Assembly: GCA_964577985.1 (NCBI GenBank) | Contig: CAZOAR010000004.1 | Span: 6,470-70,469, forward strand | Direction: 5' to 3' | DNA length: 64,000 bases | Origin: an uncultured Gemmatimonadota bacterium | GTDB taxonomy: Bacteria > Gemmatimonadota > CAZMKB01 > CAZNLH01 | Part shown: positions 16,627 to 38,949 of the stretch, in pieces | Layout: each line of letters begins with the position of its first letter | Position numbering within the stretch: the first letter of the stretch is position 1 | The notes under the pieces: model-generated | Told to the model about the DNA's origin: nothing | The model's input: only the letters and a program-made list of their open reading frames with translations | Database searches by the model: none | Program-made: the position numbers and the translations under genes

Positions 16627-18969
16627 TTACTTCACCAGGACCATCTTCCTGGCGGCGGTATGCCCGCCGATCGAGATCCTGTAGATGTAGATGCCGGAAC
16701 CCACCTTCTCTCCACTATCGGCCCTGCCGTTCCACTGAACGACGTAGTCGCCACTCTCCCTGTCGTCGTTCACCAGGGTCGTAATGAGCTGGCCGCGGAC
16801 ATTGTAGATCTTCATGACCACATGTTCCGCCTGCGACTGATCCTCAGGAACCGTGTACCTGATGGTCGTGGAAGGGTTGAAAGGATTCGGGTAGTTCTGG
16901 CCGAGCGCGAAGGCCTTCGGGATTCCGATCTCCCCCGGGGAACCATCGTCACCTATGCCGACCGGCGTGAAGAATCCAAGCATCAGGTTCATCAATTCGC
17001 CACGCGTTATCATGGTCGAATCGGCTGGATTGGAGCGATTGACCGACTCGAATCCGAAGCCGAGAACGATCGCCTCGGAACCCGTGTCCGTGTTCTCGAC
17101 ATGAACCCCACCTACTGCCCCCGAAGGAGCTACATAGGTCACGAAAGGAACGGCGACGCTGTCAGGCGTGGCGAAGATATCCGGTGATGTCTGGTTGTTC
17201 GCCCCTCCGCCTCCGCTGATGAGCGCCTTTTCTATCTGATCGCCGAGGACGTCACCGGGGACACCAAAGAGGAGTCTCCCGATCGCGCTGGAATCTTCGA
17301 GGCTGATGTGAAGGATGTCTGTCAGGAAAGGATCGGGACTGCCCCCGTTATCGAGGTCTTCCACGATGTTCTGACCACTGAGGATCAGCCGGCCCCCGCC
17401 ATTCATGTAGTCGGTCAGGACTGCAACGTCGGCGTCCGTCATGACATCACCCGTCTCACTGCCGGACATCCAGATGACCGTGTGGTAGTGGGTGGGCCAC
17501 TGGAGCTGGTCGGTAATGCTCCCCATGACCGACATGTCCCACACGTCAAACGGGACGGCGAGAGAATCCATGGTGTTTGTATAAAAGGTGTCATAAGCCG
17601 CACCACCGTCGTCATCAACCAGCATCACCGTCGGCATGCCGATCATCAGCGATACCGTATCGGTGGAAGTGACAGCACCTCCGCTGGCGCTGATGTCGAG
17701 CTGGAAGGAGACTGAATGGGAACTCGCTCCCTGGTCGATTTCTATGACGAATGGATCCGCGCCGTTGTCGCCAGCGCTGTTCGCCGGGATATCCGGATAA
17801 GTCCCCGCACCGTCCGTAACAGTCACCGTCGGGTCATTGATCACACTGAGCGTAGCGGAGATGTCGGAACCGTCGAAGAGCCGGTTGACAAGCCCGACAG
17901 CCAGGTTGACCGTCTCACCCGGGTCCGGAACACCATCTCCCGAAGGTTCATCTACAACCATGTATGCCCCCGACAGATCGGGATAATAGTCGAGCCCGAA
18001 GACGCCCTGCGTCGTGCCGACCAGCACTCGTTGTCCCTGGTCGATAGCAACGGCGTTAACCCGGCCGACCGAGAGATCGCCTGTGAGCGGAAGAAACGAT
18101 CCTCCGGCCAGACCCCTGATCGTAATGCCACCCAGATGCCCGACAAAGAGATAACCCTGCGAGGCATCTATACCCAGATCATTCTGGCCAACATCGTCGG
18201 GCCATGGCAGTGGCGTCCAGTTCTCCCCCCCGTTGATGCTCTCATACATCTCGTAAACAATTACTCTCGCCGTGAAGTAGTTCGCAGTCACGAAAAGATT
18301 CATGCTGTTGAGGGGGTTTACCGCTATATTGTCTACGACAAAGCTGATCGCCGGGTTGAATCCGCTCGTTAAACGCAGCGGCCAGGTCTCACCGGCATCT
18401 GTGCTCTTGCCGATCCCATTACCTAACCGTAAACACTCATACATGATGTTGACATCGTTTGGATCGATGGCCACATCCAGGGTAGTAAGCGTGTCCTTCT
18501 GTTCTGTCAGCCGATAGAGGCCGTCCTGAGTCGCAAAAAAAGCGATCCCGCTGTTAACAGGATCGACGGCTATCGCGTCGATTTCCTTTGGCAGCGCGGT
18601 GGGCACTTCAACCCAGTTTCTGCCGCCGTCCGTGCTCCGAAAGAACTTGGCGCCGTTACCGAAGATGTTACCCTCGTCGGAGACGACGATCGCTGCAGGG
18701 TCGGAGGGAGACACCTCGATGGCCGTCATGAGCCTGCCTCCGACAGGGTTTATAAAGACGGGAGAAAAACTGGCTCCTCCGTCTGTGCTCTTGAAGACCT
18801 TGCTCGTATTGATTGCAAAGACCGATTCGGGCGCCGAGGAATTGAGGGAGATATCCGTTACATCGAGCCCCTCGAGGCCCAACGTATCCCACGACTGCGC
18901 GCGAGCGCTACCTGAAAAGGCCATCGCCAGGATGGTCAGCAATGCTGCAAACTTCATTTTATTACCCAT
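16627..18969 (-). CDS. Secreted beta-propeller-like protein with T9SS (Por) C-terminal sorting domain
   Basis: The start is called at MGNKMKFAALLTILAMAFSGSARA (signal peptide) after a GGAGGTG SD. Multiple Asp-box-like S-x-D-G-G-x-W repeats. The C-terminus GQNYPNPFNPSTTIRYTVPE...IYNVRGQLITTL...GIYIYRI is the T9SS type-A CTD. Confidence 0.75.
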   Translation of the reverse strand: MGNKMKFAALLTILAMAFSGSARAQSWDTLGLEGLDVTDISLNSSAPESVFAINTSKVFKSTDGGASFSPVFINPVGGRLMTAIEVSPSDPAAIVVSDEGNIFGNGAKFFRSTDGGRNWVEVPTALPKEIDAIAVDPVNSGIAFFATQDGLYRLTEQKDTLTTLDVAIDPNDVNIMYECLRLGNGIGKSTDAGETWPLRLTSGFNPAISFVVDNIAVNPLNSMNLFVTANYFTARVIVYEMYESINGGENWTPLPWPDDVGQNDLGIDASQGYLFVGHLGGITIRGLAGGSFLPLTGDLSVGRVNAVAIDQGQRVLVGTTQGVFGLDYYPDLSGAYMVVDEPSGDGVPDPGETVNLAVGLVNRLFDGSDISATLSVINDPTVTVTDGAGTYPDIPANSAGDNGADPFVIEIDQGASSHSVSFQLDISASGGAVTSTDTVSLMIGMPTVMLVDDDGGAAYDTFYTNTMDSLAVPFDVWDMSVMGSITDQLQWPTHYHTVIWMSGSETGDVMTDADVAVLTDYMNGGGRLILSGQNIVEDLDNGGSPDPFLTDILHISLEDSSAIGRLLFGVPGDVLGDQIEKALISGGGGANNQTSPDIFATPDSVAVPFVTYVAPSGAVGGVHVENTDTGSEAIVLGFGFESVNRSNPADSTMITRGELMNLMLGFFTPVGIGDDGSPGEIGIPKAFALGQNYPNPFNPSTTIRYTVPEDQSQAEHVVMKIYNVRGQLITTLVNDDRESGDYVVQWNGRADSGEKVGSGIYIYRISIGGHTAARKMVLVK

Positions 18970-19110
18970 AACACCTCCATGGAACCGCTGATATCGTAGC
19001 AAGTTAATAGTCTTCCGAACGGGGTCTCGTGCTGACCCAGGTGAATTATCCCCCCTTTCAGCGCAGTAGATACATGCAGCTCGGCTAATGATACCAAGAA
19101 GAGTATCACC

Positions 19111-19138
19111 ATTATACGAAAATTTAGAAATATGTCAA
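19111..19138 (-). promoter_or_regulatory. Consensus sigma70-type promoter TTGACA-16nt-TATAAT upstream of the T9SS-CTD protein gene
   Basis: The minus strand reads cTTGACAtatttctaaattttcgTATAATgg. Both hexamers are perfect with a 16-nt spacer. It sits ~140 nt upstream of the start at 18969, downstream of the paralog array. Confidence 0.6.
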
Positions 19139-19171: not shown

Positions 19172-21535
19172 CTATTTTTTCTTCTGTTTCATCTGTTCCA
19201 CGAATTCAAGAAGCCTCTTTTTCTCACCGGGGTCCGCAACATGAGGGAGATACTCCTCGAACTCCCGGATCGATTCCTGATAGTGCCCCATCTTGTAATA
19301 AGTAACACCGAGATTGGAGTGAACTTCCGCCATCCCGGGCTCGAGCGCGAGAGCATCATTGAAATGGTCGATCGCCTCCCGGTATCTCGCATTATCATCA
19401 CATATCAATCCCAACTGGTTGTGGGCCTCCGCCGCATTCTCATCCAGGGCGATCACCCTCTCGAACATCCTCTCCGCATCGGCCGGATTCCCGCTCTTGT
19501 AATAACAGCTCCCGAGCGCATAGTAGAGACGGGGAGACAGCGTGTCACCATCGTCGAGCGCACCTTCAAGGGGCCGGAGACTGGCCAGTGCGGCTTCGAA
19601 GTCGCCGTCCTTGAGCAGATACTCCCCCAGCAGCAGACGCGCCCGCGCATTATCCGGCTCCATCTCAAGGATGTGTGACATTACCTCCTCGACCCGACCC
19701 AATTCTCCCATCCTGCCCCACAATCCTGCTTCGAGGAAGAGCGGCCCGGGTTTCTCGGATATCATGGGGTGCACATCTTCCAGCCTCCTCTCGGCCTCGG
19801 CCGTATCCCCCATGGCCAGCTCGGCGTCGACAACAGCGAGGCCCGCAACAATGTTAGTCGGGTTTATGTCGAGCACCCGGCCGAATGATTCGGCGGCTCC
19901 CCGGTAGTCCCCTGACTCCATTCTGGCGAGGCCGAGATAGTAGTGAGCCGAGACATTCCTGGCGTTCTTCGCAATGGCATTCTCGAGATAGTCGATCGCG
20001 CTCTGGAGCGAACCCATTTCCATCCTGGCCAGTCCTTTTCTCATGGTCGCATCTGACAACGAAGCCTGCCGATATTCCTTGAGCTTCTCCTTGGGATCGG
20101 GGAGAGACTGATCGAACATCTCTTCGTAGGAGGAAGTATACTTTTCCGTCGTCCCGAGATATCCGAGTGCCCTCAGTTTCTCGCGACGTTCATCACTGAG
20201 CTGATCTTCAATAGGTGTAGACATCTCTTTTCCCGACGCATCGGAGTAGATCCTGATACCCGATATCATCTCATTGAAGATCTCTCTCAGGGAATCCGCC
20301 ACTGAAGGCATCGACCCGATCAGGTTTTCCATCTCGCGCGGATCGGACCTGAGATCATACAACTCTTCCAGAGGCGCGGAGATGTACTTCCAGTTCGCGT
20401 TGCGAATGCCCCTGAGCCCGCACCATCCATAAAGGATATAAGGCGATACGCACTCCAGATAGGAAAAACCGCTACCCCCGCCCTCGCCGAAGGGGTAGAG
20501 GCTCGTACCCTGAAAATCGTGCTTCCCCCTCCACTTCACTCCCAGGATGTCCAGAACAGTGGGCAGCAGATCGATGTGCCCGGCATCACCAATATTACGG
20601 AGCCCCTCTTCTATAGTGCCCGGCATCGAGAATATCAACGGCACATGGACAGTCTGGTCATAGACAAAGTGGCCATGCGTCCTCTCCCCGTGATCGCCGA
20701 GCCCCTCTCCGTGATCGGCCGTCACGACGATAAGCGTCTTCTCCCTGATGCCCAGATCGTCGAGTCCCCGGATGAGCTTCCCCACCTGCTCATCAGCATA
20801 TGATATCTCCGCATCGTAGAGTCTGTACCGGCGTTCCTGTGATCGGGGCGACAGACCGGCAGCGGAATCGGACCACGGCGGAGGCGGATCGAGAGGTATG
20901 TGCGGATCGAAGTAGTGGGCAAAGAGGAAGAATGGCCCTTCATTCACCATCGAGCCCGCGAGGGCCAGAGCCTTTTCCGTTACTTCTTCCGCCCGCCGCT
21001 GGGTATCGTCGTACTGCGTCTTCAACTCCTTCACATCCGGCTGATAGCAGGTGAACGCTCCGAAGTCGTCGTCATAACGGCCGAATCCCTGCGAGATGCC
21101 ACTGGTGGAATCGATAACGACCGCACCGACCACGGCAGCGGTTGAGTATCCTTCTTCCTCCAGGATTTCCGCCAGAGTCTTCGACGACTCGTCGAGATGA
21201 AAACCCTCGTTGTAGTGCACACCGTTCGTGGGCGGCAGCGTGGAGGTCATTATTGCAGATATTGCCGGGAGCGTGATGGGGACGTGAGAACCAGCGTGTT
21301 CGAAGAGAACGCCCGATCGCGCCAACTCGTCTATGTTTGGAGTACCATTACTGTCGTAGCCATAGCAGCCCAGATGGTCTGCGCGAAGGGTGTCGATGAT
21401 TATCAGCACGAGGTTCGGCCTGTCAGGACCCCTCCCCCTGAGGAATAAAAAACCAAACGTTACGATCAGCGCGGCTGCACATGCGAAAAGTAATGCGCGT
21501 CGGCATGTATAACCCACGTTCCGGACGTTTCCCAT
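19172..21535 (-). CDS. Sulfatase-like (alkaline phosphatase superfamily) domain + C-terminal TPR repeat membrane protein, paralog 1
   Basis: 787 aa. N-terminal TM/anchor, then IIIDTLRADHLGCYGY (metal-binding D-T...D-H), the ...TADHGEGLGDHGERTHG motif, then ~300 aa of TPR repeats. Where sulfatases have C/S-x-P-x-R this protein has T-L-P-A-I (SHVPITLPAISAIMTS), so there is no FGly site. Confidence 0.8.
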   Translation of the reverse strand: MGNVRNVGYTCRRALLFACAAALIVTFGFLFLRGRGPDRPNLVLIIIDTLRADHLGCYGYDSNGTPNIDELARSGVLFEHAGSHVPITLPAISAIMTSTLPPTNGVHYNEGFHLDESSKTLAEILEEEGYSTAAVVGAVVIDSTSGISQGFGRYDDDFGAFTCYQPDVKELKTQYDDTQRRAEEVTEKALALAGSMVNEGPFFLFAHYFDPHIPLDPPPPWSDSAAGLSPRSQERRYRLYDAEISYADEQVGKLIRGLDDLGIREKTLIVVTADHGEGLGDHGERTHGHFVYDQTVHVPLIFSMPGTIEEGLRNIGDAGHIDLLPTVLDILGVKWRGKHDFQGTSLYPFGEGGGSGFSYLECVSPYILYGWCGLRGIRNANWKYISAPLEELYDLRSDPREMENLIGSMPSVADSLREIFNEMISGIRIYSDASGKEMSTPIEDQLSDERREKLRALGYLGTTEKYTSSYEEMFDQSLPDPKEKLKEYRQASLSDATMRKGLARMEMGSLQSAIDYLENAIAKNARNVSAHYYLGLARMESGDYRGAAESFGRVLDINPTNIVAGLAVVDAELAMGDTAEAERRLEDVHPMISEKPGPLFLEAGLWGRMGELGRVEEVMSHILEMEPDNARARLLLGEYLLKDGDFEAALASLRPLEGALDDGDTLSPRLYYALGSCYYKSGNPADAERMFERVIALDENAAEAHNQLGLICDDNARYREAIDHFNDALALEPGMAEVHSNLGVTYYKMGHYQESIREFEEYLPHVADPGEKKRLLEFVEQMKQKKK

Positions 21536-21591
21536 CTACTCATCCCTTCTACCGCCATCCCGCGCGGTTCGCCAGCGCGGCAGGCTGCATA

Positions 21592-23316
21592 CTACCTCGA
21601 CTTCAGATAGTCGAGGGTCTCTCTCAGCTTGACCCTCTCCGGCCCGACAGGCGCTCTTTCCAGAGCGAGCTCAAGTTCGTCTCTCGCCTTCTCCTCCTCG
21701 CCTTTTCCCATGTATGCGAGTCCGAGGTGATATAATGCCTGCCAGTTTGTCTCTCCCATGTCCCGCATACCTTCGAGCATCGCGATACATTCGTCGAACA
21801 TCGAGTTCTTCAGATACAGGCCGGATATATTGATCTTCGCTCGAATGGCGAGCCTGTTATTGTATTCCCCGATCTTCTCCTTCGGGTCTGCCAGCGAGTC
21901 CTCGAACATCTGCTCGTAGAGGGTTGTTTGCTCAACCGGATTACCTATGTAGCCGAGCGCCCTCAGCTTGTTTATCCGATCCGATTCATTCTTCCGACTG
22001 TTTTCCATCGACATCTCGCTGCCATATCCGGCTTCATAGAGATCAATGCCTCCGATGATGGTGTTCATCTCCTTCCTGAGAGAATCCACAACATCCGGCA
22101 TGGTCTCCGCGAGGTTGACCGCCTCATAAGGGTCCGCCGCGAGATTGTACAGCTCCTCTCCGGGAGTATCGATGAGTTTCCAGTTCAGGCTTTTCACACC
22201 CCTTATGCCGCTGTAACCGAATACGATATAGGGCATGGCGCACTCGAAATATGAGAATCCGGAGTTCTCCTTATCCGGGAAGGGGTAGAGGCTCCTGCCC
22301 TGGAGGCTCTGCCTCTCTTTCCACTCGATACCGAGAATATCGAGTATCGTGGGAAGGAGGTCTATATGACGGGACAGCCCGGCATATTTCATCCCCCGCG
22401 GCAGTCTTCCCGGCATCGAGAAAATCAACGGCACATGCAGGGTCTGTTCATATGCGAAATACGCGTGTGTTTTCTCCCCGTGCCCGCCCAATCCTTCCCC
22501 GTGATCGGCGGTCAGGACAACGAGCGTATTCTCCAGCAGTCCGGACTCCTTGAGGCCATCCAGCAGCCTTCCTATCTGTTCGTCGGTGTAGGCTATCTCT
22601 CCGTCATAGAGCTCCAGTTGTCTCTCATATGAATCTTCCGCCACGCTCGGATCCGGCTTCGAGTAAGGCGGAGGGGGATCATACGGCGCGTGCGGATCAA
22701 AGTAGTGGACAAAAAGGAAAAAGGGAGAGTCCCCGGAAAGTGAGTCCACATACCCCAGGGCCGCCTGAGTGACATCCCCCGCCCTGCGCTGCGTGTCACT
22801 CTTCACCTGCCGAGGCCCCTTCAGGTAGACCTCGTAGCCCGTGTACGCCATCTGAAAATCGTCATCGTAACGGTCGAAACCCTGAGAGAGGCCGCTGCTG
22901 GAATCGAGCACCGCCGCGCCTACGACTGCCGACGTGGAATATCCTTCCTCCTTCAGGATCTCCGCTAGCGTGACAGAAGAATCATCGAGATAAAAACCCT
23001 CGTTGCTGTGCACCCCGTGTGTCGGTGGGAGGGTCGACGTCATGATCGACGAGAAAGATGGCAGGGTTATCGGGACATGCGAGGTGGCATTCTCTGCCAG
23101 TATCCCGTCGAGTGCAAGCCTGTCGATATGAGGTGTCTCGATCGCCGTGTAACCGTAACAACCGAGGTGGTCTGAGCGCAGCGTATCGATCACGATCATG
23201 ACCAGGTTGGGCCTGGCCTTCGCCCATGGAAAGAAGCTGCCGCAAGACGACACGACGATCATGCCGGCCAGCGCCACGAGGAAGGCGCGGAGTAATGACC
23301 GATGATGATACCCCAC
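21592..23316 (-). CDS. Sulfatase-like domain + short TPR tail membrane protein, paralog 2
   Basis: 574 aa. Same core motifs: VIDTLRSDHLGCYGY, TSHVPITLPSFSSIMTS, TADHGEGLGGHGEKTHA. C-terminal TPR repeats. Confidence 0.8.
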   Translation of the reverse strand: MGYHHRSLLRAFLVALAGMIVVSSCGSFFPWAKARPNLVMIVIDTLRSDHLGCYGYTAIETPHIDRLALDGILAENATSHVPITLPSFSSIMTSTLPPTHGVHSNEGFYLDDSSVTLAEILKEEGYSTSAVVGAAVLDSSSGLSQGFDRYDDDFQMAYTGYEVYLKGPRQVKSDTQRRAGDVTQAALGYVDSLSGDSPFFLFVHYFDPHAPYDPPPPYSKPDPSVAEDSYERQLELYDGEIAYTDEQIGRLLDGLKESGLLENTLVVLTADHGEGLGGHGEKTHAYFAYEQTLHVPLIFSMPGRLPRGMKYAGLSRHIDLLPTILDILGIEWKERQSLQGRSLYPFPDKENSGFSYFECAMPYIVFGYSGIRGVKSLNWKLIDTPGEELYNLAADPYEAVNLAETMPDVVDSLRKEMNTIIGGIDLYEAGYGSEMSMENSRKNESDRINKLRALGYIGNPVEQTTLYEQMFEDSLADPKEKIGEYNNRLAIRAKINISGLYLKNSMFDECIAMLEGMRDMGETNWQALYHLGLAYMGKGEEEKARDELELALERAPVGPERVKLRETLDYLKSR

Positions 23317-23318
23317 GA

Positions 23319-25688
23319 TTATCCTCCGGAAATCTCCTTCTTCCTGATCTCCTCGATGAACGCCTTCAGTCGCGTAACCTCGACATCATCTTCCGCATAC
23401 GGTAGATAACGTTCGAACTCCTCCCGCGATTCCCTGTAGCGGCCCATCTTATAATACGTAACTCCAAGGTTGGAATGGACGTCGTGAAGCCCGGGATTCA
23501 GTCGAAGCGCATGTGTGTACTCCTCAATCGCCCGCTGATATGCGCCTGTCTCATCATCGCTCAGGCCAAGCTGATTGTATGCGTCCGCTGAGGATGAATC
23601 GAGGGACACCACACGCAGGAACATCCCTCTCGCACTGTCGGGTTCCCCGCGGCTGTATAGACAGCGCCCCAGACCGTAGTAGACACGATAGGCCAGGCTG
23701 TCCGCAAGGTCCTGGTTCTCAAGGAGCGATTCGAGGTGGGGAAAGGCCTCCTCGAAGCGGCCCCCCGAGAGGTACAGCTCCGCGAGAGATATACGAGCCT
23801 TGTCGTCTCCAGGGTCTATCTCCACCGCTCGATTCATGGTCTCCTGCGCTCGATCCGTCATGCCCAGGCGTTTGAACAACCGGCCTGCAAGCCTCAGTTC
23901 CCTCACGGTGTCTATGCCGACGGAAAAAGCCGATTCCAACCACGTAACGGCGGCGGCAGAGTCGCCCCGGGCCAGATTGAAATCTGCCGAAGCGATATCC
24001 GCCCTCACATTATCAGGTTCGATCTCGAGTACGCGTCCCATCTTCTCCAGAGCGGCGCCATAATCCCCACGCTTTGCATCTATCAAGCCGAGATAGAAAT
24101 AGGCGTTCGAGTTCCGCGAGTATTGCGCTATCGCCGACCTCAGATACTTCTCAGCCTTATCGAGCGAATCCATAGCCGCGTACGCAATTCCAACGCGCAG
24201 GCCAAGGTTCGACAACATCGCCAACCTGTACTCATCGTGTTTCTCCTTCGGGTCGGGGAGAGAAGGGGCGAACATATCCTCGTATCCAGCTTCCAGATTC
24301 TTCGGTGCGCCGATATATCCGAGGGCCTGAAGCTTCTTCTCGAATTCCGGACTCGTTTCATCCTCACTCACCGTCGAAAAACCACTGCCGCCGTCTTCGC
24401 CAGAATAGATCTCTATATTCGCAAGCATATCTCCCATAGCACTCCTCAGGGAGTCAGCCATCCGCGGTCTCCGGTCTATCAGGTTTGTCTGTTCGCCAGG
24501 ATCCTCCGCGAGGTTGTAAAGTTCTTCAGGCCCGGAGATATACTTCCAGTCCCTGCTCCGAACCCCCCTCTGAGCGCCCCACTTGAAGACAATAAACGTG
24601 GTCGCGCTCTCCAGGTATTCGAATACCGGAGCCCGGTCGTCGTCGAATGGAAAGAGACTTCTCCCCTGAAAATGTTTCCCCCGTCCTTCGATACCGGCTA
24701 TGTCGAGGATTGTGGGGGCGATATCTATGTGTCCCGCCAGCCCCTTGTAGACCTCACCCTCGGGGATCGTGCCCGGCATCGAAAATATGATCGGAATATG
24801 CATGGTCCCGTTGTATATGTAGTAGCCGTGTGTCTTCTCGCCATTATCTCCGAGACCATCTCCGTGATCAGCGACAAGAACCACCAGTGTGTTTTCCAGG
24901 AGGCCGTCCGTCTCGAGATTCCTGAGGAGTCTCCCTATCTGCTCATCGGCATAGGCAATCTCGCCGTCATACCGCTGAAGGCGGATCTCCCCACTGTCCT
25001 CCTTCAGGCTCGGATCGACCAGCGAATAGGGAGGAGGAGGGTCGTATGGGGCATGAGGATCAAAGTAGTGGAAGAACAGAAAAAAGGGTTCCTCCTCCGA
25101 CTCGGATGCCGCGATATCGAGCGCCAGATCGGTTACCTCAGCGGCCCGTCTCTGAGTGAAGCTGAGTTGATCCTCCAGTATCTTTATCTGAGGCTGGTAG
25201 ACCGAGAATCTCCCGAAGTTGTCATCGTACCGTGAGAATCCCTGTGAAACGCCATTGACGGAATCGAGGACTACGGCACCCACAACGGCGGCGGTCGAGT
25301 ATCCTTCATCCCGAAGTATTTCCGCGAGCGTCTCAGCGGAGTCATCGAGGCGGAACCCCTCGTTATAATGCACTCCGCTGGTGGGAGGGATTGTCGATGT
25401 CATGATCGAAGAGAAGGCTGGAAGCGTCAGTGGGACGTGAGAGGTCGCGTTCTCCAGGAGAACGCCCTTCCGGGCGAGATTGTCGATATTGGGCGTTCGA
25501 ATCTTATCATAACCATAACAACTCAAGTGGTCCGCCCGGAGCGTGTCCACGGCGATCAGGATGATATTGGGCCGTCTTCCATGCCAGTAGCCACTCCAAC
25601 GGGCAATAAACAGGAGCGAGAGAGACACCAGCACGACGAGCGAAACAACAAACACCGATTTCCTTTTCAATTCATTGCCCTCATACAC
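23319..25688 (-). CDS. Sulfatase-like domain + TPR repeat membrane protein, paralog 3
   Basis: 789 aa. AVDTLRADHLSCYGY, TSHVPLTLPAFSSIMTS, VADHGDGLGDNGEKTHG. Long C-terminal TPR region. Ends 3 bp from the start of paralog 2. Confidence 0.8.
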   Translation of the reverse strand: MYEGNELKRKSVFVVSLVVLVSLSLLFIARWSGYWHGRRPNIILIAVDTLRADHLSCYGYDKIRTPNIDNLARKGVLLENATSHVPLTLPAFSSIMTSTIPPTSGVHYNEGFRLDDSAETLAEILRDEGYSTAAVVGAVVLDSVNGVSQGFSRYDDNFGRFSVYQPQIKILEDQLSFTQRRAAEVTDLALDIAASESEEEPFFLFFHYFDPHAPYDPPPPYSLVDPSLKEDSGEIRLQRYDGEIAYADEQIGRLLRNLETDGLLENTLVVLVADHGDGLGDNGEKTHGYYIYNGTMHIPIIFSMPGTIPEGEVYKGLAGHIDIAPTILDIAGIEGRGKHFQGRSLFPFDDDRAPVFEYLESATTFIVFKWGAQRGVRSRDWKYISGPEELYNLAEDPGEQTNLIDRRPRMADSLRSAMGDMLANIEIYSGEDGGSGFSTVSEDETSPEFEKKLQALGYIGAPKNLEAGYEDMFAPSLPDPKEKHDEYRLAMLSNLGLRVGIAYAAMDSLDKAEKYLRSAIAQYSRNSNAYFYLGLIDAKRGDYGAALEKMGRVLEIEPDNVRADIASADFNLARGDSAAAVTWLESAFSVGIDTVRELRLAGRLFKRLGMTDRAQETMNRAVEIDPGDDKARISLAELYLSGGRFEEAFPHLESLLENQDLADSLAYRVYYGLGRCLYSRGEPDSARGMFLRVVSLDSSSADAYNQLGLSDDETGAYQRAIEEYTHALRLNPGLHDVHSNLGVTYYKMGRYRESREEFERYLPYAEDDVEVTRLKAFIEEIRKKEISGG

Positions 25689-25761
25689 GCGGATAGTCGG
25701 CGCGGAACACGATCATCGGGCATTCCACGTGGCTGTCATCACCTTGTGAACGTTGCCTTAT

Positions 25762-26811
25762 CTACTCCGACCCTTCGGCCCCCTTGATTCCCTTCACCTC
25801 CACCGTCACGACCTTGACAGGATACATCTCACTATTCGTGTGAATCTCCACCGTGCTGTTGAATCCAGCTGGTGGGAATCCCGGCAATACCGCCACATTC
25901 AGTCGGTATTTCTTTCCATCCTCGACTGTCTTCAGTTCGCACGCTACAAACTCGCTGTTGCTCTTGATCTCGTTGACTATCAGCGGCTCATCCGTGTAGT
26001 TCCTCAGCAGGACGTTGTACGCGAGTTTCCCCTCGAAATCGTTTCTGACGTTCTTGAAGGTTATTGTATACGGTGCTATCGTGTAGGGCTGGTCAATCCC
26101 GACAAAGATGGGTATGCGGACGAGTGGCTCATCATTGATACCTGTATAGACATTGACGGCGGCCGGTAGTGTCCTTCTCCTCGTGTGGGAGTCTATCGAT
26201 ACTGCTATTCGCACCGTGTCCGATCCATCCGACTCGAGCATCCTGGCCTTGACCAGTTTACCGTTCGACTCCACGTGTTTCACGTTGAGGTCATAGCCCT
26301 CCATGGGAGTCAGCTTCACAATCTGCTCCGGGATCAATTCTCCTGGCTTGTACCCGCCGAGCCTAATCTGGGACGGACTCACGTTCACGGCGACGTTAAC
26401 CGATCCTTTCATGGTGACTATCGCCTCGGGCTCACCCGGATCGTTTGTGGCTATGCGAACAGATTTTTCGAGTTCACCCTGCTCAAGTGTAATAGAATTC
26501 ACACCTACCTCGATCTGCATGCTCTCCCCAGGCAACAGCGATTTCCTGGTGACATTGGCAGTCGTGCACCCGCAATCGGGGTCAGGCTCACCAATTGTGA
26601 GTTCTTCGTCCCCGGCGTTCGTGATCGTGAACGAGTGGTGGACCTTCGTGCCACGGAATATCTCCCCGAAATCATAGACGGGTTCCGTTATCTCGATCCT
26701 TGGACCCTTCTCCCCGCCTTCCCCGGCTGCGGCTCCGTCAGGGGCTGCAAGGGTCAAGACCAGCATGGCAACTACCATAGAAACAAACATGAACGTGCGA
26801 TTCCAGATCAT
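25762..26811 (-). CDS. DUF1573 (ASH/PapD-like beta-sandwich) domain secreted protein
   Basis: 349 aa with a signal peptide. The N-terminal domain has the DUF1573 signature YDFGEIFRGTKVHHSFTITNAGDEELTI...PDCGCTTA. The rest is further beta-rich sequence. Confidence 0.65.
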   Translation of the reverse strand: MIWNRTFMFVSMVVAMLVLTLAAPDGAAAGEGGEKGPRIEITEPVYDFGEIFRGTKVHHSFTITNAGDEELTIGEPDPDCGCTTANVTRKSLLPGESMQIEVGVNSITLEQGELEKSVRIATNDPGEPEAIVTMKGSVNVAVNVSPSQIRLGGYKPGELIPEQIVKLTPMEGYDLNVKHVESNGKLVKARMLESDGSDTVRIAVSIDSHTRRRTLPAAVNVYTGINDEPLVRIPIFVGIDQPYTIAPYTITFKNVRNDFEGKLAYNVLLRNYTDEPLIVNEIKSNSEFVACELKTVEDGKKYRLNVAVLPGFPPAGFNSTVEIHTNSEMYPVKVVTVEVKGIKGAEGSE

Positions 26812-26827
26812 CGGGATGACTCCTTTC

Positions 26828-28627
26828 TCACTGTTTTGTCTTGAGATACTTCAACGCTTCCCTGATTTCCACGCGTTCAGGGCCGACCGGCGCAAGATCG
26901 AGTGCCGACAGGAACTCTTTCCGCGCGCGATTGTTATCCGTTTTTCCCATGCGGGCAAGACCAAGATTGTAGTGTATCATCCATTCTCTGTCGCCCTGGT
27001 AGTCGAGACCTTCGAGGAGTTGAATGGCCCTGTCGTACCGTTCCTGCTCGATGAGCTGCCCCGCAAGTATTATCCTGCCCGTCGCGATCTGCCGGCGACT
27101 GTAGGCCGGCATCATCTCCTTCGGGTCGGGAAGGAGCGAATCGACATCATCTCCTGTGTCAACGACGTCTGTCAGGTATCCGAGACTCTCCAGGAGTCCT
27201 TTCCGTTCAGGGTCCATGGAGATCGCCCTGGACAGCCCACCCTCCTTACTCGAAAAACGCTCGATGACGCCGCGGAGCCTTTCTCTCATGGCAGAGGCCA
27301 TCTCCGGCATCTCGTCCACCAGATTCATGACTTCACCCGGGTCTTCCTCGACGTTGTACAACTCGGGCTCGGGGGCCTGGATATACTTCCACTCATCCCA
27401 CTGCACACCCCTCAGGGCGCTCCATCCCATGAAGATCTTCCCGTAATAGGTCTCAAAATACGCCTCGACGTGCGGGAGTTCTTCTTCTCCCATAATCTGA
27501 GCTGACAGACTCATCCCCTGCATCCCGCCGGGTCGATCGAGTCCCATAATATCTATCATCGTGGGCATCAAGTCAATCGTTCGTACGGTACCATCCACGG
27601 TTTTTCCCACCGGAATTATCCCCGGGCACGAGAAGATGAGCGGGACACGAATTGTGCTGTCGTAGAGGAAATACCCGTGCGTTGCTTCATAGTGCTGCTG
27701 GAGCCCTTCACCGTGATCGGCCACAAAGACAACAAGCGTGTTCTCATCGAGTCCGAGCGCTTTCATACGTTCGAACATCCTTCCAAGTTGTCTATCCACC
27801 TCGGCGATCTCGCTGTCATAGGCCCATACGGGGGTCTCATCGGGGCTGTATCTCTGAGGGGGAAGCTTCCCCGGTGAGTCATATGGAAGATGCGCGTCGA
27901 AGAAATGGATAAAGAGAAAGAAGGGATCTCCTGAATTATCTCCGAGCCACTCGACAGTCCTGTCCACGACCGCCTTAGCGCGTCGTCTCCCTGCATTCTC
28001 GTGATCGTCCCCGGCAACCGTCGACCCATCCGTGACTTCCTCGAGCGCCCCGAAGTCGTCATCATAATCATCAAAGCCCTGGTTGAGCCCCTGTCTGTGC
28101 GCGAGTGCAGCGCTCCCGACAATGGCTTTTGTCTTGAAACCGGCCTTGCTGAAAACTTCCGCAAGCGTCGTCGCCGAGTCGCTCAACGCGTTTGTCTCGT
28201 TCTCGCGGATCCCGTGATAGATCGGGTAGGTGGACGTGAGGATAGACGTAAACGAGGGAAGCGTCAGCGGAACGGCACTCCTTGCGCCGGTGAACATTAC
28301 TCCATTGCCGGCGAGCGCGTCGATGGTCCTCGAATCCCCCCTGCCGTAACCATAGCATCCCAGGTGGTCTTTCCTCAACGTGTCGACCGAGATGATGATC
28401 GCATTGCGTGGCCGTTTCTCATTCCCCGCGGTCGTGCAGGACGACAGGAAGAGGAGAAGGAAGATGACAAGGCAGACAACCATGCGCTGCCGGTCTGCTG
28501 GAGGATTCGATGATGTCATATGGCCTGATACACGGTTCCTGATTATACTTGACATGTGAGACAAGGATCTATCTCCAGACCCTCGCACATCCGCCCGCGC
28601 GAAGATGGATCGGATCATCCGGATCAT
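26828..28627 (-). CDS. Sulfatase-like domain + short TPR tail membrane protein, paralog 4
   Basis: 599 aa. SVDTLRKDHLGCYGY, RSAVPLTLPSFTSILTS, VADHGEGLQQHYEATHG (second His motif partly altered). C-terminal TPR. Confidence 0.8.
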   Translation of the reverse strand: MIRMIRSIFARADVRGSGDRSLSHMSSIIRNRVSGHMTSSNPPADRQRMVVCLVIFLLLFLSSCTTAGNEKRPRNAIIISVDTLRKDHLGCYGYGRGDSRTIDALAGNGVMFTGARSAVPLTLPSFTSILTSTYPIYHGIRENETNALSDSATTLAEVFSKAGFKTKAIVGSAALAHRQGLNQGFDDYDDDFGALEEVTDGSTVAGDDHENAGRRRAKAVVDRTVEWLGDNSGDPFFLFIHFFDAHLPYDSPGKLPPQRYSPDETPVWAYDSEIAEVDRQLGRMFERMKALGLDENTLVVFVADHGEGLQQHYEATHGYFLYDSTIRVPLIFSCPGIIPVGKTVDGTVRTIDLMPTMIDIMGLDRPGGMQGMSLSAQIMGEEELPHVEAYFETYYGKIFMGWSALRGVQWDEWKYIQAPEPELYNVEEDPGEVMNLVDEMPEMASAMRERLRGVIERFSSKEGGLSRAISMDPERKGLLESLGYLTDVVDTGDDVDSLLPDPKEMMPAYSRRQIATGRIILAGQLIEQERYDRAIQLLEGLDYQGDREWMIHYNLGLARMGKTDNNRARKEFLSALDLAPVGPERVEIREALKYLKTKQ

Positions 28628-30738
28628 TGCTTCTCTGCCATCTTCCCGCGTATGGTCTTTATCCAGCCCTGAACCCTGGTGACCGTGAATGAATCAGGCT
28701 CTGTGGCGAGATATGACTGGTAATGACCGAGCGCCTTCTCGTACTGGCCCCGTCTGAAATAGGATCCTCCGAGGAGAAGATGCAGGTCCGTTCTCTCCGG
28801 ATCGAGCAGCAGGGCAAGCTCCCATTCCCGTTCGGCGTCCTCTGGTCTTCCCATTGCGTAGTAGGCGTTTCCCGTGTTGGCTCGTGCCTGGGGCAGGTCA
28901 GGATTGATCCTGATCGCTTCATGGAGCATCTCGAGGGCACGATCATATTCCTGACGCTTCCCGTAGATCATCCCCATGTTGTTGTACGCCTCGGCGTAAT
29001 CAGGATCCAGGCTCACGACCTTATTCAGGTCCTCCAGAGCCTCATCCTCTCTGCCCGCCCGGGACATCAGCAGGCCTCCAAGATACCAGGCATCCGCATT
29101 TTCCGGCTCCAGCTCCAGGACCCTGTCGATCTCGGCGAGCCCTTCGTCGGTCTTTCCCTCCACCCTGAGTATCTCCGCAAGATAGTAGCGAGGCAGCGCG
29201 TAATCGGGTGAGAGTTCGATCGTCTTGCGCAGGAAGTAGGACGCTGCCTCGTTCCGCTCAGATGACATGAAGAAGAGCGCGAGGCGCATATACTCCCCGC
29301 TGAACCTCTTCCTCCGGAACTCCTTCATCATCTCCCTGGGATCGGGCCCCGAGAGATCGATTGCGTCGTAGTCCGCGTCCATATCTCCCGCGCCGGCGTA
29401 GCCGAGGCTTCTAACCTTCTCGAGGAAGGCCTTATCCTTGATGCCGGGGTCCACGCGCTCGCTCCCGGCAGCCTCCTTGTCCATATCTGCGAGGAGACCG
29501 GCAAGTCTGCTCGACACCTCTTTGTCTTCGGCAAACAAGTTTCGTGTCTCATCGGGATCCTTCCGCAGGTCATAGAGCTCCGGCGATGGTGCCTGTATGA
29601 ACTTCCACCCACCTGCCCTTACGCCCCTCAGCACGCTCCAGCCCCTCTCGAACCTGTTGGCGTAAGTCTCCATATAAGCCGGGGGATTCTCCTGGCTCTC
29701 CCCCCCTTCCACACGCGGGATGAGACTCCTTCCTGAGATTCCAGGAGGAGGGGCAATCTCCATAATGTCGAGCACAGTGGGCATGATGTCGATCGACCTC
29801 ACCTGCCCATTGATCACCCTGCCACCCGACATGCCGATCGCGCCGCCGAGTATCAACGGGACACGCACGGTCGGTTCGTAGAGGAAGACACTGTGTGTCT
29901 CTTCACCATTGTCTCCCAGGGCCTCACCGTGATCGGAGGTAAACACTATCAGTGTGTTCCTGTCGAGATCGAGCTCCCTCAACTCATCGAGAAGGAGTCC
30001 TATCTGCTGATCTGTGTAAGCGATCTCCCCGTCGTAGTAGTCCGCCTGTCGGGACAGTATCTCTTTGTAATTGTCCGGTCCCGCCTGCGGGGCAAATGGC
30101 GGGGGAGGATCGTATGGTATGTGCGGGTCATAGTAGTGGAGGAGCAGGAAGAACGGTCGCTCCTTCTTTTCCTTCAGCCACGACACCGCGGATTTCGTGA
30201 TATCTTCTGCCCTCCTCTGGCTTCCATCGTAGAGGCCCTCAACGGATTTGAGCGAGGACTGATAGAATGGAAACCGCTCAGGGAAGCGTGCGTCATACCG
30301 GTCGAACCCCTGCGCCGTGCCGAAGGTGGAATCGAGTACGATCGAGCCCACGAATGCCGCAGTCTGGAGCCCCTGGGTGGACATCACCTCCGCCAGCGTG
30401 GTAACCCTCTCGGGGAGTCTGTACCCCTCATTGTAATGCACACCATGCTCCAGAGGGGTCAGGGAGGTGAGTATGGAGGATATCGACGGCAGTGTGATGG
30501 GTGCCTGCGATACGGCGTCCTCGAAACGGATCCCCTCTCGGGCCAGACGATCAATACTGGGGGTATTGTTGCCGGCATGGCCGTAACAGCCGAGGTGGTC
30601 ATACCTCAGTGTGTCGACGATTATCAGGATGACGTTCTCGGGTCTTTCCTCAGACACGGCTCCGCAGCCGCAGATCAGGAGGGATGAGACAAGGCACGTC
30701 AGAATGGCGCGGGTTGCAAGAGGCTTCATTGTCATCAC
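28624..30738 (-). CDS. Sulfatase-like domain + TPR repeat membrane protein, paralog 5 (GTG start)
   Basis: 704 aa. IVDTLRYDHLGCYGH, SQAPITLPSISSILTS, TSDHGEALGDNGEETHS, then C-terminal TPRs. Overlaps paralog 4 by 4 bp. The start codon in the sequence is GTG. Confidence 0.8.
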   Translation of the reverse strand: MMTMKPLATRAILTCLVSSLLICGCGAVSEERPENVILIIVDTLRYDHLGCYGHAGNNTPSIDRLAREGIRFEDAVSQAPITLPSISSILTSLTPLEHGVHYNEGYRLPERVTTLAEVMSTQGLQTAAFVGSIVLDSTFGTAQGFDRYDARFPERFPFYQSSLKSVEGLYDGSQRRAEDITKSAVSWLKEKKERPFFLLLHYYDPHIPYDPPPPFAPQAGPDNYKEILSRQADYYDGEIAYTDQQIGLLLDELRELDLDRNTLIVFTSDHGEALGDNGEETHSVFLYEPTVRVPLILGGAIGMSGGRVINGQVRSIDIMPTVLDIMEIAPPPGISGRSLIPRVEGGESQENPPAYMETYANRFERGWSVLRGVRAGGWKFIQAPSPELYDLRKDPDETRNLFAEDKEVSSRLAGLLADMDKEAAGSERVDPGIKDKAFLEKVRSLGYAGAGDMDADYDAIDLSGPDPREMMKEFRRKRFSGEYMRLALFFMSSERNEAASYFLRKTIELSPDYALPRYYLAEILRVEGKTDEGLAEIDRVLELEPENADAWYLGGLLMSRAGREDEALEDLNKVVSLDPDYAEAYNNMGMIYGKRQEYDRALEMLHEAIRINPDLPQARANTGNAYYAMGRPEDAEREWELALLLDPERTDLHLLLGGSYFRRGQYEKALGHYQSYLATEPDSFTVTRVQGWIKTIRGKMAEKQ

Positions 30739-30875: not shown

Positions 30876-30923
30876 GTGGACATCTTTCACATAAGAAGGG
30901 GACTCCATCCCATTCGAGATGAG
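30876..30923 (-). terminator. Rho-independent terminator (11-bp stem GGGACUCCAUC/GAUGGAGUCCC, then UUCUUAUGUG)
   Basis: Minus-strand reading. Located ~70 nt after the stop of the secreted hypothetical gene (30993) and upstream of paralog 5. Confidence 0.6.
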
Positions 30924-30992
30924 ATGGAGTCCCTCCTGAAGCTGATCAAACACCACAGGGCGCGCAGCCCCGCGGGTCATGAGTGATCAGAT

Positions 30993-31703
30993 TTAGTTCA
31001 TCTTGAAGCACCACGGACGCCCGGAACCGGCACCGTTGCCGATCTGGTCATTGGCGTTGTGGAGGAGGTTCGTGACACCAGGTCCGAACTCAAAGCCGCC
31101 AAGATCCGTGTCGGATGCCGGCGGGACCGGAATCGGGGTAAGGCCGTCATAGCGGGCCATCCATCCCCAGTCATACGTGCCGGGGCTGAAACCACTGAAT
31201 CCAACGGTGATGTACCAGTTACCCGCGTAGGGAAGCGTCAGGACGAGCGTACCACCGTCCAGAGTACTTCCATACAGACTCGGAACAGGCGGATAAACTA
31301 CGCCCGCGCCGCAGCTGGTCCACACATAGGCCTCTGAGACTGGAGTCGGCCAGGGACCGGCGTTGTTGTCGACATTGGTCCTGTGGTCGACGTACGCTGC
31401 TGAGCCACCGGTAAAGGAATACTGCTCAACACTGAAGACCGACGGCGAGCCGGTCGCCCAGCTCGGGGCCGTGAAAGCATTACCGGTAAAATTCGCAGTA
31501 CCTGGTCCGGCACCAGGTCCACCAAGCGTGTCGTTGCCTTTCTTGAAACTGCTGACGTAATTGGACACGCAGTCGATAGTGACATGATCAACATCAAGGG
31601 CCATGCCGGTGTAGGTGTCTCCCCAACCGGACTGCTGTGCGGCCTGCGCGTTAACCGCGAAGACCATGGCGATAATCGTGCAAAGAGCGAAAATCTTCTT
31701 CAT
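30993..31703 (-). CDS. Secreted Gly/Pro/Thr-rich hypothetical protein
   Basis: 236 aa. Clear signal peptide MKKIFALCTIIAMVFAVNAQA with an AGGAGA SD. No recognisable domain. Rich in G, P, T, W and Y, ending in WCFKMN. Confidence 0.5.
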   Translation of the reverse strand: MKKIFALCTIIAMVFAVNAQAAQQSGWGDTYTGMALDVDHVTIDCVSNYVSSFKKGNDTLGGPGAGPGTANFTGNAFTAPSWATGSPSVFSVEQYSFTGGSAAYVDHRTNVDNNAGPWPTPVSEAYVWTSCGAGVVYPPVPSLYGSTLDGGTLVLTLPYAGNWYITVGFSGFSPGTYDWGWMARYDGLTPIPVPPASDTDLGGFEFGPGVTNLLHNANDQIGNGAGSGRPWCFKMN

Positions 31704-35239: not shown

Positions 35240-36586
35240 TCAGAACTCCTTCCGTTTGAGGATCCGGTGCCGCTTCAGCCAGCTCCTGGTGCTGTATACG
35301 GCCTTCTGCACCGGAGAGAGGATGGTGTGAAACCTCTGAAACGAAGGGTCTATGAAGCGGTAATCCATCCCGTAGATGTCCCCCTGGAGCAGCCCCCGTT
35401 CGTTCAACTCATGGAAGAGCGGGGTCCCCGAAAAGACCTGCATCTTTGAAAGCGGGTCCACATAGGAGCCGAGCCGTTTCTTCATTGGATAGACCTTTTC
35501 CACTACAAACCTAAGATTTGTAAAGAATTCGTCAAATGTGGTCTCCGGCTCCATCGTTATGAAACCTACGCCACAGCGTATGTCAAGCCTGTCGAAGATA
35601 TCGAGCGCCTCAAGGTTCTGATCCAGCGTGACCCCCTTGCGCATCGCTTCAAGGGACCGCGGAACCGCGGACTCTATCCCGACGAAGACCTCCCTTAGAC
35701 CGGCCTTCTTGAGGCGGCGGAACAGTCCCTCTTCGATATTCTCCGCGCGGCACTCGATACGGAATTCCATGTCGAGCCCCTTCGAAAGCATGCCCTCGAC
35801 GATCTCTTCCACTCTCCTTCTTCCCGCGGCGCCCGGCCCGAAGAAGTTGGCGTCCTCGAACCGAACGCGCTTTACTCCGTAAGTCTTGAGGAGAAGCTCG
35901 AGCTCCTCCAGGATATTCTCCGGGCTCCTGCCCCGCCAGGCCGGACCCTTCGCCGTCCGATAAAATGCGCTGATGCTGCAGTACGAACATATCGCGTGAC
36001 ATCCCCTGCTCCCGACAAGCGTGAGACATCCCCCCCTCTCGAAGGCGAGGGGAAGCTCGTCTCTGGCGGGGAATGGAAGCGCATCGAGGTCTCTGATAAG
36101 CGGTCGCGCCCCGCCCTCCACTATTTGACCGGCCGGGTTTCTGTACGTCAAACCCTTCACTCCGTCGAGTGGTTCCCCCGCTCTGAGCCTGTCGAGTAAC
36201 TCCCTCACCGTGTATTCGCCTTCTCCCCTTACTACAGAATCTATCTCCGGCGTGTCTGCCATCAACTGGCGATGGGCAAGCGTCGGGAAATAGCCTCCCA
36301 CGCAGACGTGGGTCTTGAGCCCCTTCTTTCGCAGGATACTGATGAGCGACAACTGCTCCTTTGCGGCTCCCTGGTAGATAACAGTCACCCCAAGCAACCT
36401 GAACTCTCTCGCCATGATCTCCGCTGCCAGATCCTTGTGCGTCATCCCTCGGATACTTCCATCCAGGATCTGCACGGAATAGCCAAGGGAACGAAGATGG
36501 GAGGCCATGTATCCGAAACCGAGATTCTCCTGGATCGGCTCCTCCATGAGATGATAACGCGGATTTATGAGGAGCAGATCGATCAT
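35240..36586 (-). CDS. B12-binding domain radical SAM protein
   Basis: 448 aa. N-terminal cobalamin-binding-like Rossmann region, then a CHAICSYC CxxxCxxC radical SAM cluster motif. Confidence 0.85.
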   Translation of the reverse strand: MIDLLLINPRYHLMEEPIQENLGFGYMASHLRSLGYSVQILDGSIRGMTHKDLAAEIMAREFRLLGVTVIYQGAAKEQLSLISILRKKGLKTHVCVGGYFPTLAHRQLMADTPEIDSVVRGEGEYTVRELLDRLRAGEPLDGVKGLTYRNPAGQIVEGGARPLIRDLDALPFPARDELPLAFERGGCLTLVGSRGCHAICSYCSISAFYRTAKGPAWRGRSPENILEELELLLKTYGVKRVRFEDANFFGPGAAGRRRVEEIVEGMLSKGLDMEFRIECRAENIEEGLFRRLKKAGLREVFVGIESAVPRSLEAMRKGVTLDQNLEALDIFDRLDIRCGVGFITMEPETTFDEFFTNLRFVVEKVYPMKKRLGSYVDPLSKMQVFSGTPLFHELNERGLLQGDIYGMDYRFIDPSFQRFHTILSPVQKAVYSTRSWLKRHRILKRKEF

Positions 36587-38232: not shown

Positions 38233-38949
38233 CTAAGTGCAGCCCAGATAGCGGTTAACCGCTTTCAGTGTAGCCAGGGCAGCGGCCCTGTTCATGTCGT
38301 CGCGCACGAAAGAGGTCCCGACCAGTGATACTGTGGCGCTTTTTGATACGGCCTCAACGACAACGAGTACCACCGGCGAATTGACTTCTTCAACAATTTT
38401 CAGCTCCTCAAGAGTAAAAGCCTTTTCTCCGTGCAGGTACTCCTCCAGCGCGGACAGCACGGCCTTCGCGCAGATTTTCATCTGATTCGACCGTGTGCTG
38501 GTGTCTTCACAGACCCCCCTGTAGAGATTACCGCCGTTCGCGAGGACGACTTCCGCTGAACATTTCAGGTTTCCGACAGGGACAATCTCGAACCGGTCGA
38601 ATCTCAACCGTGGCTTGCTGTTCCCCTTCTCATTCCCGCCAGCCTCTCCGGGCGCAAAGGTCTCGAAGCGGAATTCGCTTGTACTCCTCCCGCCGTTTTC
38701 GGGACTCCTCAACTGGGCGACGCTTATCCTCTTGTGGTCGACCTCGATATTGAAACCGGAGAAAAGCGCGGATTCAATGTCACGCACGATATGCTTCGGC
38801 CTTCTGTTGTGATCCGTCAGAACATGTACTTCTACGATTTCCCCTTCAGTGCTGACGTTGATTTTCGCAGATATTACACCCGGAAGATTGCACAACAGGC
38901 GCTCTGCGAGGAGTAGAGAATCGGAGGAACCATTCCGATTTGATACCAT
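38233..38949 (-). CDS. Hypothetical protein with two related alpha/beta halves (internal duplication), downstream of rarA
   Basis: 238 aa, no confident family assignment. The N-half is LPGVISAKINVSTEGEIVEVHVL...IVRDIESAL. The C-half is ICAKAVLSALEEYLHGEKAFTLEELKIVEEV...LVVVEAV. The halves are joined by a Gly-rich linker. Confidence 0.4.
   Translation of the reverse strand: MVSNRNGSSDSLLLAERLLCNLPGVISAKINVSTEGEIVEVHVLTDHNRRPKHIVRDIESALFSGFNIEVDHKRISVAQLRSPENGGRSTSEFRFETFAPGEAGGNEKGNSKPRLRFDRFEIVPVGNLKCSAEVVLANGGNLYRGVCEDTSTRSNQMKICAKAVLSALEEYLHGEKAFTLEELKIVEEVNSPVVLVVVEAVSKSATVSLVGTSFVRDDMNRAAALATLKAVNRYLGCT

Follow-up and report, generated by a model that had tools for sequence, protein, structure and literature searches.

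Threonine in place of the sulfatase nucleophile in an array of five TPR-fused proteins: predicted phosphoester-cleaving metalloenzymes

The window analysed here is a stretch of 64,000 nucleotides from an uncultured Gemmatimonadota bacterium (GenBank assembly GCA_964577985.1, contig CAZOAR010000004.1, positions 6,470 to 70,469). On its minus strand, running from position 30738 to 19172, we found six open reading frames (ORFs) in the same direction, five of which encode proteins with a PF00884 sulfatase-like domain and tetratricopeptide repeats (TPRs), and one of which encodes a DUF1573 protein. The five are numbered W5 to W1 in the direction in which they are read. Our preferred reading, held with a little better than even confidence, is that they are old, exported and membrane-tethered metalloenzymes, predicted to cleave phosphoesters through a phosphothreonine and encoded in one conserved cluster with the DUF1573 protein, and that the clade to which they belong is a sulfatase fold with phosphoryl-transfer chemistry.

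Architecture and active-site residues

All six genes lie on the minus strand. W5 (28624..30738; 704 aa) begins with a lipobox-like signal, and its Thr-type sulfatase-like domain is accompanied by about six TPRs. The next gene, W4 (26828..28627; 599 aa as listed, although translation probably begins at an internal Met), encodes the lipobox LSSC, the catalytic domain and about two TPRs, and is followed by the gene for a secreted, HYDIN-type Ig-like DUF1573 protein with a CGC motif (25762..26811; 349 aa). W3 (23319..25688; 789 aa), W2 (21592..23316; 574 aa) and W1 (19172..21535; 787 aa) complete the array; W3 and W1 start with what look like signal anchors and carry about eight TPRs each, and W2 has the lipobox VSSC and about 2.5 repeats, the catalytic domain being present in all three. 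The positions, lengths and strand of the five W genes agree exactly with those in a sequence-only reading of this DNA, made without database searches.

The domains proposed in that reading were borne out by Pfam. PF00884 matched all five W proteins over its full 301-position profile (E 1e-48 to 1e-54), and SGSH_C, the C-terminal subdomain of sulfatases, was also matched in each. TPR families were found with E values down to 1e-31 in W1, W3 and W5 and weakly in W2 and W4 (2e-4 to 4e-3), and the tandem 34-residue helix-turn-helix repeats that characterise TPR proteins are present. The 349-aa protein matched PF07610 (DUF1573) at residues 39-138 with 91.7 bits against a gathering threshold of 26.1. 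Each W protein has a single N-terminal hydrophobic segment and none elsewhere, and a lipobox-like Cys occurs in W2, W4, W5 and most of their orthologs. The AlphaFold2 model of W2, with a mean predicted local distance difference test score (pLDDT) of 91.9, contains one N-terminal helix (residues 3-28) and five C-terminal helices.

At the position of the sulfatase motif C/S-x-P-x-R, all five paralogs have T-L-P-[SA]-[IF]. The Thr at the nucleophile position is residue 82 in W5 (codon 30493-30495), 122 in W4 (28262-28264), 88 in W3 (25425-25427), 84 in W2 (23065-23067) and 88 in W1 (21272-21274). The paralogs share the motifs DTLRxDHLGCYG and DHGEGLGxHGExTH, W4 showing the variant DHGEGLQQHYEATHG. 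When PDB sequences were searched with phmmer, the best matches were all formylglycine sulfatases (E ~1e-32). In alignments to three solved sulfatases, C/S-x-P-x-R pairs with T-L-P-S-F, and in both of those that extend far enough, GKWH pairs with GAAV. The Lys and His of GKWH, together with a second Lys that precedes a conserved YE, are known from ARSA and PAS as sulfate binders; the position at or beside this second Lys is occupied in the W family by an invariant His. In addition, the sulfatase PH histidine and the D-H pair are kept. A conserved CxPxR elsewhere in the domain, which the sequence-only reading had named as a finding that would overturn it, was looked for and rejected: scanning the five paralogs for [CS]x[PA]xR gave nothing at the canonical position and three unconserved chance matches elsewhere. 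All five carry Thr where the nucleophile sits and have lost the Arg, as seen both in the alignments and in the census of relatives below, and the earlier judgement that these proteins are very unlikely to be sulfatases is sustained.

The census comprised two sets of relatives, the first being 125 sequences, namely the window paralogs and the best 120 of more than 7,800 metagenome matches, and the second 114 proteins from 79 loci in GTDB-representative genomes of other phyla. Thr occupies the nucleophile position in 236 of the 236 relatives that have a residue there (122/122 in the metagenome set and 114/114 in other phyla). In the other phyla, D44, H204, H209, D271, H272 and E274 (W2 numbering) are present in all 114 proteins and H284 in 113, and D207, in the motif HxxDPH, is D or E in every member, whereas sulfatases have Ala there. 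The near-invariance of these predicted metal-binding and catalytic residues argues for active rather than decayed enzymes.

We also compared the family profile, using hhalign, with MCR-1, whose gene (MCR-1.5) was obtained from a plasmid by tblastn. The two aligned at a probability of 93.6%, with W2 H204 and H209 pairing with MCR-1 H390 and H395, D271 and H272 with D465 and H466, E274 with E468, and H284 with H478. In MCR-1, Zn1 is bound by E246, T285, D465 and H466, H395 and H478 make up the Zn2 site or touch phospho-Thr285, and E468 is hydrogen-bonded to H478; these positions differ in choline sulfatase (Hinchliffe et al., PMC5216409). As judged from these pairings, the W family combines a sulfatase scaffold with the complete set of residues typical of phosphoethanolamine transferases. 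H209 and H284 should face the nucleophile, because their sulfatase counterparts, the PH histidine and the second Lys, both touch the sulfate ester in sulfatase structures. Because the residues that replace those of sulfatases match the MCR-1-type set, we conclude that the predicted reaction would be phosphoryl and not sulfuryl transfer.

Relatives, paralog history and gene neighbourhood

The catalytic domains of the five paralogs are 41-60% identical to one another, and a neighbour-joining tree resolved five orthology groups that are common to related genomes. Two related contigs, L003 (NCBI GCA_975971865.1) and L004 (a JGI metagenome), share one order around the cluster: PdxJ, two proteins of ~230 aa, a W5-like protein, a W4-like protein, DUF1573, a W3-like protein and a W1-like protein, followed by a sortilin/T9SS protein (T9SS, type IX secretion system), UvrA, DUF1611, MR_MLE and PriA. 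The contig L002 shows the same order over the portion that it covers. Recent amplification is ruled out by the level of identity together with the occurrence of the five groups in conserved synteny, and the proposal that the paralogs are old is upheld, as is the conservation of the gene neighbourhood that had been suggested as a check. W2 is an extra member, missing at this position in the syntenic relatives and with an ortholog in a different context in L001. The more distant L005 has other flanks but keeps the module, in the order ~240-aa protein, W5-type, DUF1573, W1/2/3-type and ~230-aa protein. Orthologs of W5 were found in L003, L004 and L005, and the DUF1573 gene has the same position in these three loci. 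The persistence of the module in L005 despite different flanks shows that the DUF1573 protein and the small secreted protein are conserved partners and that the duplications are old. Accordingly, the DUF1573 gene is not an interruption of the array, as it had been described, since every related locus carrying the cluster has it at the same position. A metagenome scan with the DUF1573 alignment recovered five generic DUF1573 relatives, none of which adjoins a gene of the family, and the linkage between the two was seen in the lineage of the window only.

From W5 to W1, the gaps between consecutive genes are -4, 16, 73, 2 and 56 bp. The short same-strand junctions support the operon that had been predicted from spacing; only two of them are 4 bp or less, and not three as had been stated. 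The gene upstream of the cluster (30993..31703, minus strand) encodes a secreted all-beta protein of 236 aa with a C-terminal RPWCF motif. It is kept upstream in all related loci, often in two copies, with RPWCF invariant (L003 1062-1751 and 2451-3131; L004 2511-3200 and 3893-4603; L005 5757-6503). The protein has no match in Pfam or NCBIfam and just 12 representatives in a set of 1.84 billion protein clusters, being restricted to this lineage; its model is all-beta, of low confidence (pLDDT 59), and gave only weak Ig-like or adhesin matches. The 236-aa gene probably has its own transcript. Two strong minus-strand hairpins resembling terminators, with stems of 9 and 15 bp, fall within 30899..30975, between this gene and W5 (30975-30953 and 30933-30899). 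Downstream of W1, the gene at 16627..19002 (minus strand) encodes a BNR/sortilin-Vps10-like protein of 791 aa bearing a C-terminal T9SS type A sorting domain. The protein matches TIGR04183 with 36.4 bits against a cut-off of 23, in accordance with the T9SS cargo protein that had been noted beside the array, and weakly matches the F510_1955 glycosylhydrolase family; the gene is a conserved downstream neighbour in L002-L004, but not in L005. A sigma-70 consensus, TTGACA-16-TATAAT, matching at 12 of 12 positions, lies between W1 and the T9SS cargo gene (19111..19138, minus strand). The promoter and the hairpins are calls from consensus scans only. The separate promoter of the T9SS gene and the hairpins after the 236-aa gene suggest that the operon probably comprises only W5 to W1 (30738-19172).

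Such a perfect sigma-70 promoter is unusual for an organism of the Fibrobacterota-Chlorobiota-Bacteroidota (FCB) group, in which other promoter types are expected. A 238-aa ORF at 38233-38949 was considered as a second copy of the 236-aa family and rejected on comparison. The remaining genes of the window are housekeeping genes, among them those for SMC, LepA, UvrA, PriA, HflX and PdxJ. By its LepA, the organism falls in an FCB-group lineage: its closest relatives are 75-87% identical, and the nearest named ones are Gemmatimonadota, at about 64%, and Marinimicrobia and Zixibacteria, at 60-62%. We also observed, on the minus strand, just beyond HflX, an ORF at 35240-36586 that reads as a B12-binding-type radical SAM-like protein and overlaps by 4 bp the gene at 36583-37902, which encodes a signalling protein with MASE9 and an HD-GYP-type domain (HD_5).

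Beyond the close relatives, the best 120 metagenome matches all have the sulfatase-like domain and most also have TPRs; their database names are 'arylsulfatase A-like enzyme', 'choline-sulfatase', 'sulfatase-like hydrolase/transferase' and 'tetratricopeptide repeat protein'. At least 576 relatives were recovered when one genome per GTDB species was scanned. The best 80, like all 79 loci examined, come from metagenome-assembled genomes (MAGs); the phyla represented include Acidobacteriota, Planctomycetota, Gemmatimonadota, Nitrospinota and Sumerlaeota. In 26 of the 79 loci, two to four family genes lie within 10 kb of one another. Clustering of the neighbouring genes revealed an Oar-like barrel (CarboxypepD_reg and OMP_b-brl_4) in 34/79 loci, for example at 6429-9878 in L010, 6906-9851 in L017 and 6726-9770 in L041 (loci L007-L084); in 18/79 it is no more than 500 bp from a family gene, usually just upstream, and in 13 of these it is on the same strand. 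GWxTD-TPR proteins occur in 10/79 loci and FG-GAP/ASPIC proteins in 8/79. None of these three partners adjoins the array in the window. In our literature searches we found no published function for the Thr-type sulfatase-like and TPR family, and curated family models give none, which agrees with what the sequence-only reading had said of it.

Proposed chemistry and competing explanations

Under the phosphoesterase reading, the W proteins would be exported by Sec, after which W2, W4 and W5 would be lipid-anchored at the lipobox Cys and W1 and W3 held by an uncleaved signal anchor. A divalent metal bound by Asp48, Thr88, Asp274 and His275 (W1 numbering, as in the following) would activate the hydroxyl of Thr88, which would attack a phosphate ester to form a covalent phosphothreonine intermediate. 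His212 would stabilise the phosphoryl or leaving group together with His287, which Glu277 would orient, and the family-specific Asp210 may bind a second metal together with His212 and His287. Water would then resolve the phosphothreonine, making the proteins periplasmic phosphodiesterases or phosphomonoesterases; transfer to an acceptor hydroxyl is considered less likely. The C-terminal arrays of 2 to 8 TPRs would dock partners or substrates, and the five paralogs may differ in specificity or assemble jointly. We favour a hydrolase over a transferase because the W proteins are without a lipid-donor membrane domain; all characterised transferases of this type known to us (EptA/MCR, LtaS, OpgB and BcsG) have such a domain, which is multi-pass.

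Several points weigh against this reading. First, overall similarity in sequence and fold is highest to true sulfatases, the alignment to MCR-1 spans only the C-terminal half, and the predicted clustering of Thr, His, His and Asp in space is taken from alignment to solved homologs. Second, the lineage of the window has lost the His that 114/114 proteins of the other phyla have four positions after the Thr, where sulfatases have the Arg of CxPxR. Across the five orthology groups this residue varies among F, I, L, V, M and T (Ile92 in W1 and Phe88 in W2), the Thr occurring in one L005 paralog and the residue being otherwise hydrophobic; within this lineage only a basal 662-aa paralog of L001 keeps the His. 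Third, the W5 orthologs at 3409-5529 in L003 and 4782-6956 in L004 carry DQG or DNG where the family has DHG, and the former also has DPN instead of DPH; the W5 of the window keeps the canonical residues. Judging by these substitutions, the metal site of the W5 group seems to be shifting in relatives; together with the lost His, they mean that the enzymes of this lineage may not have the activity typical of the family. Fourth, the housekeeping context in the window points to no substrate. The same context gives no support to the proposal of the sequence-only reading that the array modifies envelope glycoconjugates or lipid head groups, and the recurrent Oar-like barrel in other phyla points to substrate uptake or processing as much as to envelope modification.

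A broader version of the enzymatic reading, which we put forward tentatively, is that the family is a large, phylum-spanning and uncharacterised enzyme class, a Thr-nucleophile branch of the arylsulfatase fold that has the catalytic residues of phosphoethanolamine transferases but not their membrane domain and is fused to TPRs, acting as an enzymatic lipoprotein partner of outer-membrane machinery, namely of Oar-like barrels in Acidobacteriota and of the DUF1573 protein and an orphan beta-sandwich protein in the FCB-group lineage of the window. If true, this would amount to a new extracytoplasmic phosphoester-processing pathway, serving nutrient capture or envelope remodelling. Rather unlikely, in our estimation, is that the W proteins are phosphotransferases adding phosphoethanolamine, phosphoglycerol or phosphocholine to a polymer or lipid of the envelope, the acceptor hydroxyl being on lipopolysaccharide (LPS), a glucan, an exopolysaccharide or a glycoprotein and the TPRs holding the acceptor or a partner. 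In favour of this, the catalytic residues are the same as those of MCR-1/EptA, the proteins are membrane-tethered, several paralogs could serve different acceptors, and secreted or T9SS proteins are neighbours; nevertheless, the W proteins have no multi-pass membrane domain, their scores against the NCBIfam models for EptA, LtaS, YejM and MCR are 15-41 bits against cut-offs of ~400-1250, and no genes for LPS, glucan or exopolysaccharide biosynthesis were found nearby in the window.

We regard it as improbable that the family consists of catalytically secondary binding or scaffold proteins, in which the domain would bind a phosphorylated or anionic ligand and the lipoprotein would be paired with an outer-membrane transporter, much as SusD is with SusC. 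The close, mostly same-strand Oar-like barrels in 18 of the 79 loci would suit such a role, as would the many members that are lipoproteins with a TPR module and the altered metal ligands of the W5 orthologs; against it, pure binding would not demand a nucleophile and metal and catalytic residues that are near-invariant across phyla, and no Oar-like barrel adjoins the array in the window. Least probable, with very little weight in our view, are sulfatases that work without formylglycine, through the Thr or a metal-bound hydroxide: although the best sequence, hidden Markov model and fold matches are all sulfatases, and the phosphonate monoester hydrolase/arylsulfatase branch of the superfamily is known for catalytic promiscuity, the formylglycine motif, the Arg and the GKWH binders are replaced, with His at or beside the second Lys, the replacements match phosphoryl-transfer enzymes, the equivalog score is 148-174 bits against 481, and a sulfatase with a Thr nucleophile is, as far as we know, without precedent.

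If the phosphoesterase reading is correct, its consequences extend beyond this array, as databases label thousands of such proteins 'arylsulfatase A-like' or 'choline-sulfatase'. Inferences about sulfur cycling drawn from MAGs of Acidobacteriota, Planctomycetota, Aminicenantes and the FCB group would be inflated, and a function in phosphorus cycling or in the envelope would have been overlooked. The clade would also be a natural case of a phosphotransferase-type catalytic set on a sulfatase scaffold, which bears on specificity switching in the superfamily. That family genes are often duplicated in tandem and linked to outer-membrane barrels further suggests a hitherto unstudied multi-component system.

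Comparison with known systems

The nearest known proteins are the S1 formylglycine sulfatases and phosphonate monoester hydrolases (BT4656 GlcNAc-6-sulfatase, 5g2v; the S1_25 module of FA22250, 6hr5; SpAS2, 4upl; RlPMH, 2vqr), with which the W family shares the PF00884 fold of the alkaline phosphatase superfamily. The NCBIfam scores agree, being 148-174 bits for the arylsulfatase model NF010322 (cut-off 481), 92-134 for choline-sulfatase (433) and 98-129 for PehA (900), compared with 15-35 bits for the curated EptA/MCR models alone (~490-1250). The comparison values were 33 for YejM/PbgA, 29.4 for LtaP, 28.1 for EptC, 26.8 for LtaS, 26.6 for EptA, 26 for MCR-1, 24.8 for NPP, 23.3 for PafA and 22 for BcsG. 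Since sequence and fold are closest to sulfatases and these scores agree, the W family belongs by descent to the sulfatase branch and not to the LtaS/EptA branch. The label "LtaS/EptA/MdoB-type" in the sequence-only reading therefore fails as a statement of descent, the nearest proteins being formylglycine sulfatases and the multi-pass membrane domain being absent; its likeness to EptA stands at the level of the catalytic residues alone.

The family nevertheless differs from the S1 sulfatases in several respects. Where these convert a Cys or Ser to formylglycine, the W proteins have Thr; the Arg of CxPxR is F or I in the window and His in other phyla; the Lys and His of GKWH give way to GAAV, and a His stands at or beside the second sulfate-binding Lys; and two features are added, an Asp in HxxDPH that is peculiar to the family and an array of TPRs at the C-terminus. 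The formylglycine motif, the sulfate binders and a score above the equivalog cut-off are thus all lacking. With EptA, EptC and MCR-1, the W proteins share the Thr nucleophile, the periplasmic location and the 12-residue spacing of DHGE...H, and they have the D/E-T-D-H metal site, the two His and the orienting Glu, of which the Thr and the first Asp are matched through the paralog and sulfatase alignments, the hhalign alignment having omitted the N-terminal half. They differ in having one N-terminal hydrophobic segment instead of an N-terminal multi-pass membrane domain. The phosphoglycerol transferases LtaS and OpgB are likewise set apart by their multi-pass membrane domain and by the curated scores. 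The periplasmic domain of YejM/PbgA/LapC is 17-19% identical, but YejM has a domain of five transmembrane segments and no TPRs, and the W proteins reach 25-35 bits against its NCBIfam model (cut-off 825). NPP and PafA (PF01663) are soluble or secreted Thr-nucleophile hydrolases, as the W proteins are predicted to be; the N-terminal ~70 residues of the W proteins match PF01663 at 49-57 bits, and the segment T-x-P-x-x...T-x-x-x-P-x-x-H-G...N is in what we take to be the register of the NPP motif TFPNH...N, yet membership in NPP is unlikely on grounds of fold. By the residues, domains and scores compared here, the W family is neither an S1 sulfatase family nor a member of EptA/MCR, LtaS or OpgB. 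The fold, the type of nucleophile and the fusion to TPRs are each already familiar, and their combination is an uncharacterised clade of the alkaline phosphatase superfamily.

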